Virus record (IMG/VR): IMGVR_UViG_3300025168_000036 | From: a virus | DNA: 64,000 nt | Reading direction: 5' to 3' (one strand) | Part shown: positions 11,829-22,099 of the stretch, in pieces | Position numbering within the stretch: the first letter of the stretch is position 1 | How the letters are laid out: each line of letters begins with the position of its first letter | The notes under the pieces: model-generated | What the model saw: the letters and a program-made list of their open reading frames with translations, nothing else | Databases searched by the model: none | Told to the model about the DNA's origin: nothing | Position numbers and translations under genes: made by a program

Positions 11829-13487
11829 TTACATCATTCCAAATCCACCACCCATTGGTTGGGCAGCTTCTTCTTCATTGTTATTTTCATTAATAATTAT
11901 ACACTCAGTTGTTAAAATTGTACCTGCAACTGAAACAGCTTTTTCTAATGCAACTCTTGTTACTTTTGCTGGATCAATAATACCAGATTTCATCATATCA
12001 ACAACTTGTTCTGTTCTTGCATCAAAGCCCATAGTAAAAGGTACAGAGTCTTCATCTGACATTCCATCAAATGCATGAATCTCATTCCAGATATTTGCTG
12101 CATCAAGGCCTGCATTTTTCATAATGATTTCAAATGGCTCTTGTACTGCTTCCATCACAATTCTATAGCCTGTAATTTGGTCCTCATTTTCAAATACATC
12201 ATCAACAACATCATCATCAAAGCAACTTCTTAGTGCAATTCCTCCACCAGGTACTATACCTTCATCAAGTGCAGCCCTAGTAGCATGTAATGCATCCTCA
12301 ACTCTGTCCTTCTTTTCCTTCATTTCAATTTCTGATTCAGCACCTATTTTAAGAATTGCTACACCTCCAGCCATCTTTCCAACTCTTTGCTGATATACTT
12401 CTTTTTCATAGTCTGAGTCTGATGTTTCAAGTAGTACCTTAATCTCGTTTACTCTATTTGCTATTGATTCTGGGTCACCTGCACCATCAACTATTGTTGT
12501 TGACTTTCCACTAACAGTTACTGTTTTTGCACTACCTGCAAAGTCTGATACATTAATAGTATCTAGTTTATGACCTTTATTCTTACTTATTACTGTTCCT
12601 CCAGTAATTGTTGCAATATCCTCAAGCAATTGAGTTCTCTTTTCACCAAATTCAGGTGCCTTTACTGCAGCAACCTTAAGTGTTCCCCTTGCCTTATTTA
12701 CAATAAGTCCAGCTAGTGCCTCGCCTTCAACATCATGAGCAACTATTAATAGTGGCTTGTCTTGTGCGATTGCAGCTTCTAATGGTTTTACTAACTCTTT
12801 AAGTGTTTGAATCTTTTTGTCAACCAATAATATCCATGGGTCTTCAAATTGTGCATGCATGTGATTATTATCTGTAACAAAGTATGGTGATATATAACCT
12901 CTATCAAATTGAACACCTTCTACTGTTTCAAGGTATGTATCATTTGTTCTAGACTCCTCTACTGTAATTACACCTTCTCTTCCTACTTTATCCATTGCAG
13001 TTGCAATTAACTTACCAACCTCAGCATCATTGTTTGCTGAAATTGTAGCCACCTGTTCTATTTCTTCTTGAGAAGAGATATCTGTTGCTATATCATCAAG
13101 CTTTTCTACTACTGAAGTTACCCCAATATCCATTCCCCTTTTTATATCAACTGGATTAGCCTTTAGTTCTGTGATACAATTAAAACCTCTTCTTAGTATT
13201 GAATTTGCTAATACAGTGGCTGTAGTTGTTCCATCACCTGCCTCATCGTTAACTTGATTTGCAACCTCTTTTACCATTTGTGCACCTGCATTTTCAACTT
13301 CATCTTCCAAAAATACTTCCTTTGCAACAGAAACACCATCTTTTGTTGATACAAACTCACCATTTTTTTCAAGAATTACATTTCTACCTTTAGGTCCTAA
13401 AGTTGCACTAACTGCTGTTGAAAGTTTTTGAACACCTTTTCCAATTAGGCTTCTTGCATCTTCGTTAAATTCAATTCTTTTCTTCAT
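11829..13487 (-). CDS. groEL: Chaperonin GroEL
   Basis: [50 protein letters not shown] tail. Confidence 0.97.
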
Positions 13488-13780
13488 TATTTTGTCTCCT
13501 TATAAATTGTTAAAATTTCATCTTCTCTACATACGATGAACTCTTCTCTATTAACTTCAAGTCTTTTAGCTGAAAATTTTGGATAGTATACTACATCGCC
13601 TACCTTACATTGCATATGACCTCTTTTTCCAGTATTTAGTAGTGGGCCGGGACCTACTGCTAATACTTCGCCTTTAAGTGATACTTCTGCATCAACTTCT
13701 GGCATAATTACTCCACCTGATGTCATTTCATCTGGTTCTAATCCTTTTAATACTACATTTCCTCCTGTTGGTGTAAACAT
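13487..13780 (-). CDS. groES: Co-chaperonin GroES
   Basis: TSGGVIMP mobile loop, GEVLAVGPG, KVGDVV, REDEIL. Confidence 0.92.
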   Translation of the reverse strand: MFTPTGGNVVLKGLEPDEMTSGGVIMPEVDAEVSLKGEVLAVGPGPLLNTGKRGHMQCKVGDVVYYPKFSAKRLEVNREEFIVCREDEILTIYKETK

Positions 13781-14499
13781 TATATTGCCTCCTTATCTTT
13801 AATTCTTAATTTATTTTCTATTTCATGTGAGCTTCTTACACATGATATTCCTAATTGGTCTTTCATTACTTCTGGTGTTGTGCAAGACTGGTTAAAGCTT
13901 GCAAAATCTGTTTTACTTGGGAACCTTCCACAACCTGCAAATAGACACCCAAATGCATTTGATAAATAATCTGCAGCTGCGTAGTCACACTTTCCTATTA
14001 AGTCACATCCTGGCTTGAAGCTTTTTGCAGCTTCAATTCCCATATCGATCATCTTCTCTCTTAATAGCCAATGTAAACCTACAATAAACTCTTCCTCGCA
14101 AAACTTAAGCCTTCTCATCATCTGTCCTCTAAGAGAATTAATATTTTGCTCAACTACGTATGTACATTCTCTTGACATTAAATTAAACAATTCAGGATTT
14201 TCGCTTTCAGATACTCTGTGCTTTTCCAGTTCAGATAGCGTTTTTATGGTTTTGTCGCGAAAGTCTGAGTTCTTCTCCATTAACTCATATACCTGAGTAT
14301 AAACCACATATGTTGGGTTTGGATTAACCTCATATTGCTTAAATTTAATTCCTACTCTAGCCCTTGAATGTTGATCATATTGGCAAATTGGTGTCCCTTT
14401 TACTCTATATGTTATCATACCAGAAGCCTGATGCCAATTCAAAATGTCTACTTCTAGACCTTTCACTCCACACTTTATTTCAATGTTATTAACTTTCAT
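13780..14499 (-). CDS. Divergent ThyX-fold protein B
   Basis: ITYRVKG..DQHSRARVG (RHR-like), NINSLRGQMMRRL, C-terminal PGC...GKC. Confidence 0.55.
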   Translation of the reverse strand: MKVNNIEIKCGVKGLEVDILNWHQASGMITYRVKGTPICQYDQHSRARVGIKFKQYEVNPNPTYVVYTQVYELMEKNSDFRDKTIKTLSELEKHRVSESENPELFNLMSRECTYVVEQNINSLRGQMMRRLKFCEEEFIVGLHWLLREKMIDMGIEAAKSFKPGCDLIGKCDYAAADYLSNAFGCLFAGCGRFPSKTDFASFNQSCTTPEVMKDQLGISCVRSSHEIENKLRIKDKEAI

Positions 14500-15307
14500 A
14501 AAATAATTCTTTATCCTTTTTGCTTAAATCTTCAAATTTATATTCTCTTATCTTATGTAATACAACATCTGTATTTTCAAATATTACACTCAGATATAAA
14601 CCTATAAATGGGAATTGTTTTTCAACAACACTTACAAGTTCTTTATAGAGTATTGCCAATGACTGCTCTTTTACATTATCACCAAACTTTCCTGATGCAT
14701 TGAATCCTCTCATTGATACTAATGAAAGTAAATTTTGGCCAAAATGATATGAGTGTTGATAGCTTTGTGGTAAGAATGTTCTACCAGACTGCCAACTTGA
14801 TTGATCTTCATTTAATACATCTGCATATATTTGCTTTAAGTCATTAAATGTTTTCTTTTCTTCTGATGATAGTTTTCTTTTGCCTACAGTAATAATGTCT
14901 ACATCAGACTTATTATTGTCTCTGCATCCTATACTCATAAAACTTGTGAATGGGGTCTGAGTGTGGTAGTCAAATAGCCATCTTGGTACACCTCTTACTC
15001 TGAATATAAATTGTACCATTTCTCTTGCTTGTGGTAGTGTATTGTGAGTCAATACAGCTTTTACAACCTCAAACTTACCTTCAGGAGTTGTTTCTGGCCA
15101 TTTTTGCTTAAACTTATTGTCACCCCAAGTAGAAGTACTTGTCACAAACATTGACTTATAAGGATTTGTCATGTGGTCTTCTAATGTGACCTCAACCTCA
15201 TCAATCATATCGTGAAATTCAGTAACAACTGGTGGCCTCTCTTCTGGGAGAGTTCCCATAACTTTTCTTAGGTTTTCTACAACCTCGTAACTTAATTTAT
15301 CTTCCAT
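14489..15307 (-). CDS. Divergent ThyX-fold protein A
   Basis: AREMVQFIFRVRGVPR, SFMSIGCRD, GRTFLPQ, NLLSL, KQFP; the RHR motif is lost. Confidence 0.65.
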   Translation of the reverse strand: MEDKLSYEVVENLRKVMGTLPEERPPVVTEFHDMIDEVEVTLEDHMTNPYKSMFVTSTSTWGDNKFKQKWPETTPEGKFEVVKAVLTHNTLPQAREMVQFIFRVRGVPRWLFDYHTQTPFTSFMSIGCRDNNKSDVDIITVGKRKLSSEEKKTFNDLKQIYADVLNEDQSSWQSGRTFLPQSYQHSYHFGQNLLSLVSMRGFNASGKFGDNVKEQSLAILYKELVSVVEKQFPFIGLYLSVIFENTDVVLHKIREYKFEDLSKKDKELFYES

Positions 15308-15343: not shown

Positions 15344-16300
15344 TTAAATATAAAAATGTAACGAATCAAATTTTATATTTATTTTAATATTTTCTACTTT
15401 AGTATTTTTATCAAACCAGATTTTTATCATTTTGCATATAGATATAAAGTCATGGTTAAATAGCCCTACGTTTGAGGACCTAAAGTTTACACTTACATTT
15501 AATGTATTATTTCTAAGTAGAATATGAACATATGACAGGCACTCATCATCTGTAAATACAAATCTTCTACTATGTGAGTCTTCCTTCTTTCCATAGTATC
15601 CTGATAGCTCTGATTCTATCTTTTTTGTGAATTTAGCTAATTGGAATTTATAACTGTCAACTTCAAGCTGCATATAGTCATTTATATTCTCCAACCCTGT
15701 ATATAGATCTTTTGATGCCCAACTTTCCACATCGTCATAAGACATATCTAAATCCATCTTATAATTTATAAGCTCCTTAGTACCACCAACACTAGCTCCG
15801 TATTCCTGTAATGCAGTCATTGCTGTTCCTATTTGGTGCTCTGGGCTTAATAAAAATTCATTATACATTTCTATAATGCCATTAATTCTTTTTGCAATAG
15901 ATCCTGGATCATCCTCTCCATCTATTACCCAAAAGTTTCTATGCTTTTCAAATCTAATGCATAGATCTTTATATATTCTTGCCACATGCTTTATTGACGA
16001 CCAAGACTGGAATTCATCTCCCCTATTACAATATCTCCTATGCAACTCTGCCTCACTAATGTCAAAATAGAAAACTATATTGTCATTAAGATAAGATATA
16101 AACTCATGTTCTCTTTCTTCATTATTGTCGAATCTGTTATGTAGCATGCCGTAAGCCATTATTGACATCAAGCCTCTATCGTTTAAGAGGACGTCATAGT
16201 CGTTGCCAGATTGTATAATTTCCCAAACCTTTTGGTATTGAGTTGTCTTACCTGAACAGTCAGGTCCTTCAAATATCAATTGTAGTCTTTTATTCATCAT
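15344..16300 (-). CDS. dNMP (thymidylate-kinase-like) kinase fused to a minimal ThyA/dCMP-hydroxymethylase-like domain
   Basis: EGPDCSGKTT and NDR (kinase); SRR, ECLSY, FRSSN, HDF, SLHFY (TS fold). Start is 16300 or 16297. Confidence 0.7.
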   Translation of the reverse strand: MMNKRLQLIFEGPDCSGKTTQYQKVWEIIQSGNDYDVLLNDRGLMSIMAYGMLHNRFDNNEEREHEFISYLNDNIVFYFDISEAELHRRYCNRGDEFQSWSSIKHVARIYKDLCIRFEKHRNFWVIDGEDDPGSIAKRINGIIEMYNEFLLSPEHQIGTAMTALQEYGASVGGTKELINYKMDLDMSYDDVESWASKDLYTGLENINDYMQLEVDSYKFQLAKFTKKIESELSGYYGKKEDSHSRRFVFTDDECLSYVHILLRNNTLNVSVNFRSSNVGLFNHDFISICKMIKIWFDKNTKVENIKINIKFDSLHFYI

Positions 16301-18536
16301 TAAACCTTTCATAAATTTTATTTAAGAACATTGTCTCACTATCTTTAAATCTACCAAGAGATATTAGCACCAATTCACCAGGTTCTATTTCCTCAAAACC
16401 TTTCATCTTATTCTGCCATATAAAGAAGTCTATTGAGCCATTGTCATCTTTTAGTGTTGCAATACCCATAGGCTTACCAGAAGACTTACTTCTTTTTGCA
16501 ATATATTTATCTACTATACCTATAATATAACAACCCATCTTGTCACCAAGTTTCATCCTTACTTCACTTGGTAGCATTGTATTTTGAAACTTAAAGTCTC
16601 TTTCTGTAAGTATTTGTACCATCTCTTTAATAGTGTCATTTATAAGATACTTTACATTAGTAGACATTGCACCATATTCAAGTTCTTTTAACTCTGTAAA
16701 GTTAAACTTTTTATCTTCATAGTCAGGTTGCTTTTTCTTTGGTAGCCTACCTTTATGAAATTGATTATAAGTATCCACCTCCTCATCCCATGAATCAAAT
16801 GCACCTGCAAATATTAAGTTTTCAACCTTTGACTTATTTTTAATTTCAGATCTGTCCAAGAAGTCCTGGAAGCTATTATATGGTGCGTGATTTAGTATTA
16901 GCTCCACATCACTAGGTGAAACAGTCTTAATTGCATCAAAGCCAAATAGTATACTTTTATCAACTATTGTAAATCCTTTTTGAGATGCATTTATATTTGC
17001 ACGTTCAACTTTAAAGCCTAGTTTCTTTGCAACATTAATGTGCTTCATCATATCAGTTCCTGGTTCAGAGTTGTCAAGCATAACCTTCATATATTCAATT
17101 GGGTAATTTGCCTTAAAGTATCCACCCCAATAAGATATTAATGAATAAGATACAGAATGGGCTTGATTAAAGCCATAGGCTGCAAATGCAGCACACTTTT
17201 CAAATAGATCCATTGCATCTGATTCCTTGATATGAACTGATAAGCCTTTGATAAACTTTTCCTTGTATAGACCAATATTCTTTTGCCTTTGCTCCATTGA
17301 TTCCCAGTCACGGTACTTAACTAATACCTTTCTAAACTTATTTGATTCTGAATCTGTAAACCCTGCAATAAGTGCCAGTTTCATAATTTGTTCTTGATAG
17401 GTAATAATTCCATATGTTTCTTCTAGGACTGTGTTAAGTGGTTCTGGCCACCTTTCGTACTCACCTGAATGTTTACGTTTGGCATACTCAGTTGGCATAC
17501 CTTCCATAAGTGGGCCAGGTCTTAATAGTGCAGAAACTGCTGATAGTTCAGCAACTGAGTCTGCCTTAACATCTTTTAAGATACCTTTTGCTGTGCCTGA
17601 TTCAAATTGAAATATTGTATCAGTATCTGATGTGTGGAATATTTTCTTAAATGTATATTCATCATCTAGTGGAATGTCACCTAGTTTTAGATTAAGTCCA
17701 TGCCTTTTATTAACAAGGTCCATAGTTGCACCTACTATTGATACATTTTTAAGGCCAAGTATATCAAACTTTACATATCCCATATGCTTAAGGCCGTAAG
17801 TTCCAGTACCTTCCTCCCATGCTGATGATATACCATCACCAATTTTATTTAGTGCAATATTTTCATCTAAGTTTTCAGATGATATAATAACACCAGCTGG
17901 ATGTGTTCCGTAATTCCTAAGCATACCTCTAATCTTTTCTGCATAGAATTTAACCTTGGGGTATTTTGTAAAGTATTGTTTTAGTTTGTCAAAGTCATTA
18001 GCAAGTTCATCAAATGTTTTCTTTTCAGTTGACTCACCAGCCATGATAGTCTTTGTCATACCGAATGTATCCTTTGCAGGGACACCTAATGCACCAGCAA
18101 CATCTTGTATAATTGCCCTTGTTTTTGCAAGCTGATATACACCAATTTGTTTTACCTTTTCTCTACCAAACCTTTCATAGATGTAATTAATGACCTTTTG
18201 CCTTCCATGCCTACATACATCTTGATCAATATCAACAAGATCGACATCACCATCAGTTATAATCTCTGGCTTTTTATTTGTTTCAATGGGGTTTTCCTCA
18301 TAAATATCCAACAGCCAGTACAACAGACTATTTTGTTTATTACCTGGCAATTTCTTGCCTTTATTTTCGGTTATAAACGCCTGAATCTGCTTGTACTGGT
18401 CTGGATATCGTGCCTGGTAAAAATCGATTGCATCACACTCTTGTTGTAGCCAAGCAATATGCTCATCAAGACCTCTTTCCCTAAGGACCTTTGATGCATT
18501 CGTAAATATTTTATCTCCAATTAGTATCTTACTCAT
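16290..18536 (-). CDS. dnaE: DNA polymerase III alpha (family C), catalytic/C-terminal subunit
   Basis: DIDQD, HPAGVIIS, KFDILGL, FQFES, LRPGP, YQEQIM, YGFNQAHS, C-terminal OB fold. Confidence 0.92.
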   Translation of the reverse strand: MSKILIGDKIFTNASKVLRERGLDEHIAWLQQECDAIDFYQARYPDQYKQIQAFITENKGKKLPGNKQNSLLYWLLDIYEENPIETNKKPEIITDGDVDLVDIDQDVCRHGRQKVINYIYERFGREKVKQIGVYQLAKTRAIIQDVAGALGVPAKDTFGMTKTIMAGESTEKKTFDELANDFDKLKQYFTKYPKVKFYAEKIRGMLRNYGTHPAGVIISSENLDENIALNKIGDGISSAWEEGTGTYGLKHMGYVKFDILGLKNVSIVGATMDLVNKRHGLNLKLGDIPLDDEYTFKKIFHTSDTDTIFQFESGTAKGILKDVKADSVAELSAVSALLRPGPLMEGMPTEYAKRKHSGEYERWPEPLNTVLEETYGIITYQEQIMKLALIAGFTDSESNKFRKVLVKYRDWESMEQRQKNIGLYKEKFIKGLSVHIKESDAMDLFEKCAAFAAYGFNQAHSVSYSLISYWGGYFKANYPIEYMKVMLDNSEPGTDMMKHINVAKKLGFKVERANINASQKGFTIVDKSILFGFDAIKTVSPSDVELILNHAPYNSFQDFLDRSEIKNKSKVENLIFAGAFDSWDEEVDTYNQFHKGRLPKKKQPDYEDKKFNFTELKELEYGAMSTNVKYLINDTIKEMVQILTERDFKFQNTMLPSEVRMKLGDKMGCYIIGIVDKYIAKRSKSSGKPMGIATLKDDNGSIDFFIWQNKMKGFEEIEPGELVLISLGRFKDSETMFLNKIYERFNDE

Positions 18537-18537
18537 A

Positions 18538-19821
18538 TTATATCATTTTTGGGAATGAAGCTTTATCTCTACCTAGGTCTAAGAACCTCTCAAAGATTAA
18601 ACCCCAATCTAGTGGATTGACTTCTGTTAAGCCTAGCACAAATGCAATTAGGCTTCCTGCAACTGAACCTCTACCAGGTCCAATATATATCTTTTCTTTA
18701 TTACAATATTGTATTATGTCCTCAAGTATAAGAAAGTATCCAATGTAATTCATTTTACGTAATACTGAATATTCATATCTTATCCTATCTTTTACCTCAT
18801 CTGATATATCATTGCCAAATCTGTACTTAAGTCCATGTTTTATCTTTTCTTGAAATATGACTTGTTCATCATCATATAATTTTGGAAGCTTTACATCGGC
18901 ATCAAAGTTTGTGTCTTGAACAAGGTCAAGTATTTTGTGACAGTTATTTGCCGATTCAATAAATACATCTTCAGTAAACCACTCATTGCAGTGGTGCTTT
19001 TTCCAAGATGCATGCATTTCGTCATAGTTTTTATAATAAAGTTCTCTGGCATGATAACCTTTTAAGTTTTCACAATCAGTAATACCATCCTTATTAGATC
19101 TATCTCTAATTGTTATTAGCATGTCATGAACTTCCTGATCATCATAGCGAATATAGTGAGCGTCATTGGTCACAACTGTTTCTATATCAAGTTCTTTTGC
19201 AATCTGAACAAGTTGTTTATTACAATCAATTTGTTCTTGCATCTGATGTACTTGTAGTTCTATAAAGTATTTGTCGCCAAATCTGTCCTTATATCTTTTG
19301 GCCACACTTTTGGCCTGTTCGTAGTCACCATTCATTAAATGAAACGGTATTTCACCACCTAGACATGCAGAAGTGATTACAAGACCCTCACCATATTTAC
19401 TAAGCATTTCAAAATCTGTTCTTGGTTTAGAATAGAAGCCATTCATGTGGGCATCATTATTAATTCTAATTAGATTTTTTATTCCTTTATTATTATATGC
19501 TAAGACAAGAAGGTGAAAATACTTTCTGTATTTTTGTTTGTTTTCATCTATCTGCCTATCACCCTCAGACATAAATCTGTGATTGTTAACATATAGTTCA
19601 CAACCAAACACAGGAGTAATACCCTCTTGTCTAGCATACTTCCATAACCTGGCCCAGGATGAGATCACACCGTGATCAGTAATTGCTAAGTGACTTAAAT
19701 TGTTCTCCTTGCCGAAGTCAATAAGTTCCTGCAACTTTGAAAGTGCATCTCTGGTTGAAAATTCACTATGGCAATGTATTTGTACGAAGCCATTCTTAAC
19801 ATCTTTCCTGGGTTTTATCAT
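18538..19821 (-). CDS. dnaE: DNA polymerase III alpha, N-terminal PHP subunit
   Basis: HCHSEFS..D, AITDHG, GCE, HLLVLA, TNDAHY, GPGRGSVAGSL, FERFL. Confidence 0.92.
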   Translation of the reverse strand: MIKPRKDVKNGFVQIHCHSEFSTRDALSKLQELIDFGKENNLSHLAITDHGVISSWARLWKYARQEGITPVFGCELYVNNHRFMSEGDRQIDENKQKYRKYFHLLVLAYNNKGIKNLIRINNDAHMNGFYSKPRTDFEMLSKYGEGLVITSACLGGEIPFHLMNGDYEQAKSVAKRYKDRFGDKYFIELQVHQMQEQIDCNKQLVQIAKELDIETVVTNDAHYIRYDDQEVHDMLITIRDRSNKDGITDCENLKGYHARELYYKNYDEMHASWKKHHCNEWFTEDVFIESANNCHKILDLVQDTNFDADVKLPKLYDDEQVIFQEKIKHGLKYRFGNDISDEVKDRIRYEYSVLRKMNYIGYFLILEDIIQYCNKEKIYIGPGRGSVAGSLIAFVLGLTEVNPLDWGLIFERFLDLGRDKASFPKMI

Positions 19822-19893: not shown

Positions 19894-20242
19894 ACATGCA
19901 ATGGTTCATCCACTTTCCGTAAAACTTAAGGTATTCTTTTTCCAGTCTGCCAAACGTTAGTGTCTTATAGTGCACACTTTCTAGCTTATCATTTGGGAGG
20001 TGTGTTGAAAGATAGTTATCTATTAAATTTTGCAAACCTTTTATATCATGATACTGTATGAGATTAGTGGGAAAGCAAAACATGAACTCTTTTGTGCCGT
20101 CTTCTCTATTTAGTATATAGCTCCAAAAGTCATCTATATATAATCTTGAATCTATATTACTCTCTACTTGTGATTCCCAAAATTTAATCTCAGCCTTTGC
20201 AGCTGGATTTTCATAGAAGCAGGTTGTTAATTTTACTTTCAT
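19892..20242 (-). CDS. Hypothetical protein within the nucleotide cassette
   Basis: 116-aa ORF overlapping the dNTPase-HAD gene. Confidence 0.55.
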   Translation of the reverse strand: MKVKLTTCFYENPAAKAEIKFWESQVESNIDSRLYIDDFWSYILNREDGTKEFMFCFPTNLIQYHDIKGLQNLIDNYLSTHLPNDKLESVHYKTLTFGRLEKEYLKFYGKWMNHCM

Positions 20243-21143
20243 GTTTTATACCTTTATTTAGTTTTCTATCTAGTGTCTCTTCTGTATATAAGCCAAAGTT
20301 TGGCTTTAAGTATACTTCAAATCCACTATCATTTAATTTATTTGCATTATTTATATCATCATCTATACAAAATGCAACCTGTTCGGGGTCAAAGTTATTT
20401 ATAATATACTTTTCCTTCTCTTCATCAAACACAATTGCATCATAGCATATACCATTGTCCTTAAGCCACTTAATTGTGTCTGAATATATTCTAAAATACT
20501 TTTTATATGGCCTTGCGGTAAGAAGTACAACACTATATTTCTTGCATGCGTCTTTCATAAACTGCTTTGCACCATCTAGCACATCTAATGTTGCTTTTAC
20601 ACCACATGTTCTATATTCAGATTTTATTCTATATTGTTCTTTTTTATCAACTTCTGATTTGAATTGACTTAGACTTTCATAGCCAGACCACTTTAAGAAT
20701 CCACCTGGCCAATCTGCAAGTACACCATCTATATCTATAAAAGCAATCTTTTTATCAGATGCCTTAATCTTTTTCATTACCTTTTCTTGGTTAAATTTAG
20801 CCTCTACAACTCTTGATTTGTCCATAAACTTTTCATATAAGTCATCTACACTAAAGCCATTAAGTTGAATTATTCCAAATAGATATTTTAATACATCAAC
20901 ACATTCCTCTAATACATTATCATTTACATCTTCAGTCTTTTTTGATGTGTGCATCTTCCAATCTATTTCATCTAGTACTTCATATACTTCCTTAGATAAT
21001 GCTAGAACATATTCTTTATTCCATTTTATCTTTAATTCCTTATCATTAACGACATCATCTATTGTAAGATTGTGTTTATCTTTAAAGAACTTCTCTGTAA
21101 AGCTCTTTTGTAATTCGAAAATTTCTTTTAATTTATCTTTCAT
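20211..21143 (-). CDS. All-alpha dNTP pyrophosphatase (dimeric dUTPase/T4 gp56-like) fused to HAD 5'(3')-deoxyribonucleotidase
   Basis: EVYEVLDEIDWKMH...EECVD; then DIDGVLAD, LTARP, IDDD. Start 21143 gives an ATGA overlap with the upstream stop. Confidence 0.8.
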   Translation of the reverse strand: MKDKLKEIFELQKSFTEKFFKDKHNLTIDDVVNDKELKIKWNKEYVLALSKEVYEVLDEIDWKMHTSKKTEDVNDNVLEECVDVLKYLFGIIQLNGFSVDDLYEKFMDKSRVVEAKFNQEKVMKKIKASDKKIAFIDIDGVLADWPGGFLKWSGYESLSQFKSEVDKKEQYRIKSEYRTCGVKATLDVLDGAKQFMKDACKKYSVVLLTARPYKKYFRIYSDTIKWLKDNGICYDAIVFDEEKEKYIINNFDPEQVAFCIDDDINNANKLNDSGFEVYLKPNFGLYTEETLDRKLNKGIKHESKINNLLL

Positions 21144-22099
21144 CTTAATTCCTTTGTCCATCCTAGAACTCTATCTAGTACCTCATTTGCCTTTACCTTA
21201 TGATTCCATTGTGCGAATCTACCTAACATATATATTTTGTCTATCTTATCTAGATTAATACTATTTTGAATTTGGAATGGCAAGCCTTCAAATTTATGTA
21301 TTATAGGATAAGGTGGAGTTATTGGCTCCACAGACTCATATACCATATAATTATTAAAGTATGTCTTTCTTGACCAGCCTTCTGTGTGACCATAAATATA
21401 GTCAAACTTGGATAGCTCACCTTTATTTGTCTGGTAGAAACATTTTGGTAGTGTTGTAAGATCATATTTATCTAGCTCATCTCCATCCCATATTGAACCA
21501 AGTGGAGATTCCTTAGTAAGAAGCTTTAGATTAAGTGTGTTTATAACAACATTATAGCTTCTACACATTGAAGGTCCTGCACCATCCTTTGCATATATGT
21601 ATCCGTGTGAGTCTACCTTTGTAATTCTTTCTCTTTTAAGCTGACCTCTATCAATATCAATTATTTTTAATAGTGTTTCAAATAAGAATTTATAGCTATC
21701 CTCACCCATGTCTTCTATTTCTAGGTGCTGTATTTCATTCTTGCCTTCAGATAGGTAGCTTGACTCAGACTTACTTTTTCCTCTAGTAAGTTTTGTATAC
21801 TTATTCTTAAAACCTGGAGGTAGGACTACGTCTCTTTTTCCATCTTCCTCATACCCAACAATTGCTACAACTGTTTTTATTCTATATGAATGCAAACCTG
21901 CATCATTTAATACACTTCTAACGAATTTTTCTGAATTTTCTGTTTTTTGGATTAATCTAGGTCCTGGAATAAACGGTAAATTTAACTGGCCTAGTGGATT
22001 TTCATCATAAACAGCATATTCTGGAAAGTAGTATCCAGCTATTAAACCTGCCGGACCTCCACCTAATATACAACCTTGTTTCATTTTATTTTCTTTCAT
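21140..22099 (-). CDS. FAD-dependent Rossmann enzyme (UDP-galactopyranose mutase/HemY-like fold)
   Basis: ILGGGPAGL at the N-terminus; LGRFAQWNH near the C-terminus. Confidence 0.7.
   Translation of the reverse strand: MKENKMKQGCILGGGPAGLIAGYYFPEYAVYDENPLGQLNLPFIPGPRLIQKTENSEKFVRSVLNDAGLHSYRIKTVVAIVGYEEDGKRDVVLPPGFKNKYTKLTRGKSKSESSYLSEGKNEIQHLEIEDMGEDSYKFLFETLLKIIDIDRGQLKRERITKVDSHGYIYAKDGAGPSMCRSYNVVINTLNLKLLTKESPLGSIWDGDELDKYDLTTLPKCFYQTNKGELSKFDYIYGHTEGWSRKTYFNNYMVYESVEPITPPYPIIHKFEGLPFQIQNSINLDKIDKIYMLGRFAQWNHKVKANEVLDRVLGWTKELR

Follow-up and report, generated by a model that had tools for sequence, protein, structure and literature searches.

Introduction

The thymidylate synthase (TS) ThyX (also Thy1; EC 2.1.1.148; PF02511), a drug target, is a textbook example of an enzyme whose active site lies between identical subunits, and it has been described as a homotetramer (PMC5954106). 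In the ThyX of PBCV-1, one site takes Gln75 and Arg182 (Arg174 in the numbering of Thermotoga maritima, which is used for ThyX residues hereafter) from one protomer (monomer A in that report) and Ser88/Gln89 from another (monomer B), and the substrate deoxyuridine monophosphate (dUMP) is hydrogen-bonded by Arg78, Arg80, Ser88 and Arg90 (PMC3498832). Arg174 activates dUMP, and Ser88, Arg90 and Tyr91 aid methylene transfer (PMC8316439). Here we report on two adjacent open reading frames (ORFs), A and B, between which the residues of a ThyX-type site are divided. They lie in a 64,000-nt stretch of marine phage DNA (hereafter, the window) from the IMG/VR virus record IMGVR_UViG_3300025168_000036, the source genome being complete at 145,441 bp with direct terminal repeats. 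Our reading of the pair, for which all of the evidence is computational, is that A and B are duplicates of a single-chain ThyX-like flavoenzyme that retain complementary halves of it and assemble as a mixed complex, and we consider this reading to be probable.

Two other described systems are relevant to the pair. PolB of Streptomyces cacaoi, a UMP/dUMP C5-methylase and ThyX paralog (PDB 4p5a, 4p5b), shares the ThyX fold and sets the precedent that a ThyX paralog can have a changed substrate range; unlike the putative A/B complex, it is homomeric, has a complete site in each chain and is without a cysteine (Cys) module. In addition, obligate heteromers that arose from duplicated homo-oligomeric enzymes, with reciprocal loss of site residues, are a known general phenomenon (reviewed in PMC9548406).

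Fold and family assignment of A and B

Unlike ThyX, A fell under the Pfam gathering cutoff for Thy1 (21.2 bits, with a cutoff of 24.8) and B was not detected, having no match in Pfam. There was also no match to B in PHROGs, a search that linked neither protein to a known family. Nothing was found in PDB sequence searches with A, B and their profiles, and blastn and tblastn comparisons with 50,697 phage records gave no direct sequence link for either. The NCBIfam equivalog model for thyX (TIGR02170; cutoff 87.9 bits) matched neither A nor B and gave 31.5 bits for the single-chain form described below, compared with 173.5 bits for the ThyX of P-SSM2, which served as the control. Homology was not detectable in a direct comparison of A with B, which produced only a local match of 17-26 residues at the position of the RHR motif. 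The ThyX motif RHRxxxxxxxS was found within one chain in neither protein: B has R46-A47-R48 (Ala for His) without the Ser-loop, and A has the loop S125-I-G-C-R129 without RHR.

The fold of each protein was assigned from structural models. Close relatives of A and of B numbered more than 100 metagenomic protein clusters each, many of them from marine samples, and AlphaFold2 (AF2) models made with those alignments had predicted local distance difference test (pLDDT) scores of 90.3 for A and 88.7 for B. ThyX was the top match in the fold searches with both models. For A, the Foldseek E-value was 2.6e-7 and the VIA Z score was 15.2 over 202 residues at a root mean square deviation (rmsd) of 3.0, with the next unrelated structure at Z 2.3; for B, the corresponding values were 7e-5 and Z 15.3 over 152 residues (rmsd 2.7), with the next unrelated structure at Z 4.0. 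The top structural matches of A and B were the same set, all of them ThyX or the ThyX-like PolB, and the enzymes of T. maritima (TM0449; PDB 1o26), Mycobacterium tuberculosis (3gwc) and PBCV-1 (A674R; 2cfa) have the same fold as A and B at Z 12-15. In a protein-language-model atlas, B was placed beside Thy1 clusters with scores of 0.95-0.96. The ThyX alpha/beta fold, which the original prediction had assumed for both proteins, is confirmed for A and B in these models.

An undivided single-chain parent family

An undivided counterpart of the pair is encoded at L041, one of 42 related viral loci (L041:6004-6978), where one 325-aa protein combines motifs of A (TWGDN, TLPQALE, SIGCRDNN, SWQIARCILP and a C-terminal DKKDKLLF) with motifs of B (DQHARAR, RMKFCEEEF and PGCD..C..GCLFAGCGRW..SC). 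This protein passed the Pfam Thy1 cutoff at 51.1 bits and covered the full profile. The family to which it belongs (e.g., P0236-P0355) comprises more than 258 clusters of proteins of ~320-335 aa, all of which have a Thy1 match and some of which are annotated at source as 'thymidylate synthase ThyX'; in an exhaustive hidden Markov model (HMM) search, 1,214 representative clusters were recovered, grading into shorter ThyX-core proteins. Every motif of A and B is present in the family, including DQHxRAR, SxGxRDNN, SWQxAR..LP, R..CEEE, the four cysteines and the C-terminal DK.LF tail. The single-chain form is one gene whose product is presumably a homotetramer with four equal sites, and it was never found together with A/B in the genomes checked: in six A/B genomes, the A genes were the only Thy1 matches and there was no single-chain or canonical ThyX beside the pair.

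In profile-profile comparisons, the single-chain family matched A over family residues 1-241 (probability 100%, E 1e-78) and B over family residues 97-301 (probability 100%, E 2.6e-59). Since A and B both match the parent over ~145 common, homologous core residues, they are duplicates and not two pieces of one gene, and the profiles indicate that they derive from the single-chain parent type by duplication. In a tree of the shared core, a quick IQ-TREE analysis that does not fix the points at which A and B join the single-chain sequences, A (52 sequences) and B (53 sequences) were each monophyletic with a support of 100, on long stems of 1.84 and 1.98 substitutions per site, respectively. The topology indicates a single origin of the A/B pair.

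Division of conserved residues between A and B

The fate of conserved positions was scored in a three-way alignment in which 73 columns were conserved at a level of at least 90% in the single-chain family, and a position was counted as kept if the same residue occurred in at least 80% of the sequences. Forty-two of the 73 columns were kept in A only and 22 in B only, with two kept in both and seven in neither. For the shared core alone the numbers were 21 in A only, nine in B only, two in both and two in neither, an anti-correlation with a Fisher p of 5e-5, a value that overstates the significance as columns in blocks are non-independent. Judged from the alignment, the complementarity of A and B is far beyond chance. 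Whole modules were divided as well, the N-terminal extension and C-terminal tail being found in A only and the Cys module in B only. Like the heteromers known from duplicated homomers, A and B combine duplication with complementary degeneration, putative sites between subunits and tight linkage of the genes, but the division of whole modules goes beyond that general pattern.

Residues were mapped to ThyX by aligning the single-chain profile with HMMER to the T. maritima and M. tuberculosis enzymes, and both alignments concurred (Table 1). ThyX chains were the only matches of the single-chain profile in the PDB (E 0.012-0.43), and the T. maritima numbering was supported by the titles of PDB mutant entries (H53, S88, R90, Y91, E144 and R174) and by the PBCV-1 alignment. 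The equivalences that the original prediction had drawn by eye agree with this mapping, except that the Ser88-Arg90 loop could be out of register by one to two residues. Like ThyX, A and B jointly keep the equivalents of Glu58, Gln75, Arg78, Arg80, Arg90, Arg147 and Arg174; unlike ThyX, they are without equivalents of His53, His79 and Tyr91 and have an extra N-terminal extension and the four-Cys module. In the parent family, His53 and Arg165 each align to Leu and Tyr91 lies near D127.

Table 1. Equivalence of ThyX site residues in the single-chain protein of L041 and in A and B.
T. maritima ThyX	L041 protein	A	B
Glu58	E92	E96	lost
Gln75	Q110	lost	Q43
Arg78	R113	lost	R46
His79	A114 (Ala)	lost	A47 (Ala)
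Arg80	R115	lost	R48
Ser88-Arg90 loop	S122-x-G124-x-R126	S125..R129	lost
Arg147	R180	R176	lost
Arg174	R207	lost	R130
His178	C211 (Cys)	lost	C134 (Cys)

All of the motifs that had been named for the two proteins were present, and each was invariant in its family: TLPQAREM (E96), SIGCRDNN (R129) and SWQSGRTFLP (R176) in A, and DQHSRAR (Q43, R46, A47, R48) and GQMMRRL (R130) in B. In each family, more than 50 sequences were compared, and the retained half-site residues did not vary among them. At the equivalents of Gln75, Arg78, Arg80 and Arg174 in A the commonest residue accounted for only 37-71% of sequences, and at the equivalents of Ser88-Arg90 and Arg147 in B for only 26-72%; this variability of the lost half-site positions within each family implies relaxed constraint and not a new function. 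The equivalents of the five arginines that bind or activate dUMP are all invariant but split, with R129 and R176 in A and R46, R48 and R130 in B, and their meeting in one site would depend on the A/B heteromer considered below.

The replacements of Ser88 by Gly and of His79 by Ala had been put forward as hints of altered chemistry. Both changes are already found in the single-chain parent and did not result from the split. Since they pre-date it, they bear on the chemistry of the whole subfamily and not on that of the heteromer. The Cys beside the Gly at the Ser88 position is variable in the parent family and fixed (at least 90%) only in A. Similarly, the Cys-rich stretch that had been described as a tail on B is present, but it is an inherited module of the parent that was deleted from A and not a new tail. 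Its four cysteines are invariant both in the B family and in the single-chain family, with the spacing C-x5-C-x18-C-x15-C. The module had low pLDDT (58-70) in the metal-free AF2 model of B, and it could hold zinc or an iron-sulfur cluster.

Predicted assembly of A and B

The active site of ThyX is built between protomers, as we infer for A/B, with the difference that ThyX is a homotetramer of one polypeptide whereas the site residues of A/B are divided between two paralogs. Because the two residue sets come from different protomers, an oligomer of A only or of B only would be without a complete site, and an A/B interface would restore one. The linkage of the two genes supports a heteromer: A was followed by B on the same strand in all 39 related viral loci that had a whole A gene, at A identities of 47-93% and with spacings that ranged from a few-base overlap to ~60 nt, plus one case of ~680 nt. 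In the window, the ATG of B sits within the last four codons of A, and the resulting 11-nt overlap is an arrangement typical of translational coupling.

An ESMFold2 complex model of a 1:1 A-B pair, made with alignments, had an ipSAE of 0.73 (0.71, 0.74 and 0.73 in separate runs), compared with 0.00 for the best control; 58 of 80 solved complexes and two of 110 mismatched pairs attained this mark. At least 69% of the contacts were common to the runs, and the pLDDT of the partners was at least 84. The modelled interface is pseudo-twofold, with A 149-166 packed on B 80-94 and A 173-182 on B 103-109, and with A 108-116 and 128-129 (C128, R129) close to B 37-46. Residues 37-39, 42 and 45-46 of B are part of the modelled interface. 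The model supports A-B binding, although it does not show it.

The obligate A/B heteromer with a rebuilt composite nucleotide site that was originally proposed has gained support from several directions, including the existence of a parent family with both residue sets, the reciprocal retention of those residues, the 39/39 linkage, the published assignment of residues to protomers (PMC3498832) and a complex model that passed its controls. Some observations weigh against it. R130 of B was not among the confidently placed interface residues, and the passing of the model may reflect the likeness of A and B to solved ThyX homotetramers rather than binding. Since only a 1:1 pair was modelled, we infer the stoichiometry and the number of live sites rather than read them from the model. 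Finally, in a second alignment, made with hhalign between the single-chain family and a narrow cyanophage/Prochlorococcus ThyX set (58% probability), the Arg174 region was shifted by nine residues. We hold this shift to be an artefact, as it aligns a helix to what is predicted to be a strand, and we prefer the HMMER alignments to the T. maritima and M. tuberculosis enzymes, which concur and also fit the order of strand followed by helix in the models.

If A and B did not assemble together, they would form separate homo-oligomers, possibly non-catalytic ones that serve in nucleotide sensing or regulation, and their adjacency would reflect shared regulation. Homomeric assembly is ancestral for ThyX (PMC5954106), which favours such an arrangement, but it leaves A-only or B-only oligomers with no complete nucleotide site despite the invariance of the half-site residues across each family. 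In addition, the losses were reciprocal and not random, the pair was never separated in 39 loci and the genes appear to be translationally coupled, and on balance we regard separate homo-oligomers as quite improbable. The overlap of the two ORFs on one strand is also what would be seen if a single ThyX gene had been broken by a frameshift or an assembly error. The likelihood of such an artefact is practically nil, and it is ruled out by the findings that both ORFs hold the whole ThyX core, with ~145 homologous parent residues in common, and that 39 independent viral contigs show the same arrangement, with more than 100 protein clusters for each protein.

For the mixed complex of A and B, we propose the following origin and mode of action. 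One duplication of a single-chain ThyX-like flavoenzyme gene, of a type common in marine viruses, would have been followed by the loss of different sets of functional parts from the two copies. A would have kept the N-terminal extension, the Glu58 equivalent, the SxGCRDNN substrate loop, the Arg147 equivalent and the C-terminal tail, and B would have kept DQHxRAR (Gln75, Arg78, Arg80), the four-cysteine module and, together with the CEEE motif, the equivalent of Arg174. Produced together via translational coupling, the proteins would form a mixed A/B tetramer, most simply a D2-like A2B2, in which two sites would be complete, A supplying the loop and Arg147 and B supplying RHR and Arg174, and the other two would be dead. 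Such an enzyme would modify C5 of a pyrimidine deoxynucleotide with a flavin, its default product being deoxythymidine monophosphate (dTMP) from dUMP.

A literature search for heteromeric, paralogous or duplicated-and-degenerated, pseudo-enzyme or Cys-module forms of ThyX found nothing relevant, and the heteromer, if true, would be the first heteromeric ThyX in the literature searched. A natural two-gene version with an extant single-gene parent would show which residues act from which protomer, and it would offer a clean, datable case of the passage from a homomer to an obligate heteromer, with one origin and more than 100 surviving descendant clusters per subunit.

Chemistry and substrate

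We take dTMP from dUMP as the default product of the putative A/B enzyme because A and B between them keep all of the arginines that bind dUMP, neither ThyA nor another ThyX is present in five of the six A/B genomes examined, the genome is A+T-rich and the neighbouring genes belong to nucleotide metabolism. Against this default are the following: the parent family is without equivalents of His53, His79 and Tyr91, and probably also of Arg165 and His178; it fails the thyX equivalog model (31.5 versus 87.9 bits); its four-Cys module is invariant; and G001, a phage with a complete genome of 391 kb, encodes a genuine ThyA in addition to the A/B pair. The ThyA of G001 (G001:C1:142470-143600; L126:271-1401) matched TIGR03284 at 260 bits and has the PPCH and PFNIASY motifs, with an insertion of ~45 aa between them. 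Given the changed equivalents of His53, His79, Arg165 and His178, the cofactor binding of A/B may also differ from that of ThyX.

Several of these features are accommodated if the same heteromer is not a TS and the subfamily as a whole, single-chain and A/B alike, makes a non-canonical pyrimidine nucleotide or draws on another one-carbon or electron donor, via a metal or iron-sulfur centre held by the four cysteines. It would work with the neighbouring kinase/TS-like fusion, dNTPase-nucleotidase and Rossmann flavoprotein-like gene to alter the bases of phage DNA. We judge a non-TS role of this kind to be somewhat unlikely. The absence of His53, His79 and Tyr91 equivalents is family-wide, acidic residues (D109 and D127) are invariant at active-site motifs, the equivalog model failed, the four Cys are invariant and G001 has a ThyA, all of which favour it, as does a cassette common to the window and L041 that consists of the Rossmann protein (25% identity, E 2e-10), the kinase/TS-like gene and the nucleotidase. 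Against it, no dUMP-binding arginine of ThyX is missing from A and B taken together, five of the six A/B genomes had no other TS, A+T makes up about 66% of the window, and many organisms have ThyA and ThyX together. Koehn et al. are said to have reported in 2009 that Ser88 is not a required nucleophile in ThyX, which also counts against a non-TS product. The ThyX paralog PolB, on the other hand, shows that the fold can change its substrate (PMC5954106).

A broader proposal is that the single-chain and A/B proteins constitute a new class of pyrimidine-nucleotide modifiers with the ThyX fold, which depend on a flavin plus a metal and help marine phages to replace a canonical base, with A/B as a half-of-the-sites heterotetramer; this we consider doubtful and offer as speculation. 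A paper on 5-hydroxycytosine (PMC13326640) concerns the ThyA-fold neighbour and makes no mention of ThyX. Whatever its product, the subfamily exposed here is a large ThyX-like one of marine viruses with a four-cysteine module and several canonical catalytic residues absent, and its location in nucleotide-remodelling cassettes means that it may matter to the way in which these phages produce or modify DNA precursors.

Locus and genome setting

The original prediction had called two ORFs at this locus, and both are present, on the minus strand (Table 2). The window has a G+C content of ~34%, and almost all of its genes share a strand. In the region scanned around A/B, there were no promoter-like or terminator-like sites above chance. 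Upstream of the pair are the thymidylate-kinase-like protein with its extra C-terminal domain and the split DnaE, with the dUTPase_2/MazG-NT5C fusion and the Rossmann-type protein farther upstream, and downstream are GroES and GroEL. These neighbours vary between loci, GroES/GroEL and the kinase fusion being present beside the pair in subsets only.

Table 2. Features of A and B and of their surroundings in the window, with related genes at other loci.
Feature	Location	Strand	Remarks
ORF A	14489..15307	minus	272 aa; ThyX-fold paralog with the 'substrate-loop' half of the site
ORF B	13780..14499	minus	239 aa; ThyX-fold paralog with the 'RHR/Arg174' half and the Cys module
A-stop/B-start overlap ATGAAAGTTAA	14489..14499	minus	11 nt, from reading of the sequence
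A TLPQAREM	15017..15040	minus	E96 = Glu58 equivalent; invariant in A, lost in B
A PRWLFDYHTQTPF	14948..14986	minus	degenerate RHR position; Gln75/Arg78/Arg80 equivalents replaced by variable Y, Q, V/T
A SIGCRDNN	14912..14935	minus	Ser88-Gly89-Arg90 substrate-loop equivalent; R129 invariant
A SWQSGRTFLP	14768..14797	minus	R176 = Arg147 equivalent
B PICQYDQHSRARVG	14350..14391	minus	Q43, R46, R48 = Gln75, Arg78, Arg80; A47 for His79; invariant in B
B FKQYEVNPNP	14314..14343	minus	degenerate Ser88-Arg90 loop position; variable in the B family
B GQMMRRLKFCEEEF	14086..14127	minus	R130 = Arg174 equivalent; C134 at the His178 position
B Cys module PGCD..KC..GCLFAGCGR..SC	13882..14013	minus	C165, C171, C190, C206; deleted in A
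GroES and GroEL	11829-13780	minus	phage genes immediately 3' of B; kept in closer relatives only (L002-L024)
Thymidylate-kinase-like protein fused to a C-terminal domain	15344-16312	minus	beside A/B in the closest relatives only
Same fusion, single-chain locus	L041:8957-9838	plus	26% identity to the window protein
Split DnaE	16290-19821	minus	PHP/N-terminal gene and C-terminal gene; same split upstream of A/B in most related loci
dUTPase_2/MazG-type nucleotide pyrophosphohydrolase fused to NT5C-type 5'-deoxynucleotidase	20211-21161	minus	same gene string as A/B
Rossmann protein	21140-22099	minus	NAD_binding_8-like, GxGxxG; ~290-320 aa; upstream of A/B
Rossmann protein, single-chain locus	L041:4335-5204	plus	upstream of the ThyX-like gene
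Rossmann-type gene, similar	L043:4941-5846		upstream of the ThyX-like gene
Genes after the ThyX-like gene of L041	L041:6978-8960	plus	class I S-adenosylmethionine (SAM) methyltransferase, small His/Cys-rich protein, uracil-DNA glycosylase (UDG)-superfamily protein
Single-chain ThyX-like homolog of L043	L043:5812-8001	plus	carries an intein just before DQHxRxR

The neighbourhood of the single-chain family resembles that of A/B in having the Rossmann protein, the nucleotidase and the kinase/TS-like fusion. The 25% identity between the Rossmann proteins of the window and L041 extends over their full length; a Pfam search with the window protein gave no match, and this protein could be a redox partner of the ThyX-like enzyme. 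At L041, DnaE is replaced by a family B DNA polymerase.

Inteins of ~156-393 aa were found in single-chain homologs at three sites, each within a catalytic motif: just before DQHxRxR (L043 and P0392), in or just after the SxGxRDN loop (P0368, P0385 and P0364) and at the Cys of R..CEEE (P0358 and P0370). The intein of L043 had weak Pfam Hint and LAGLIDADG matches. Inteins are typically located in critical motifs, and the three intein-bearing motifs of the single-chain family coincide exactly with motifs that are divided between A and B.

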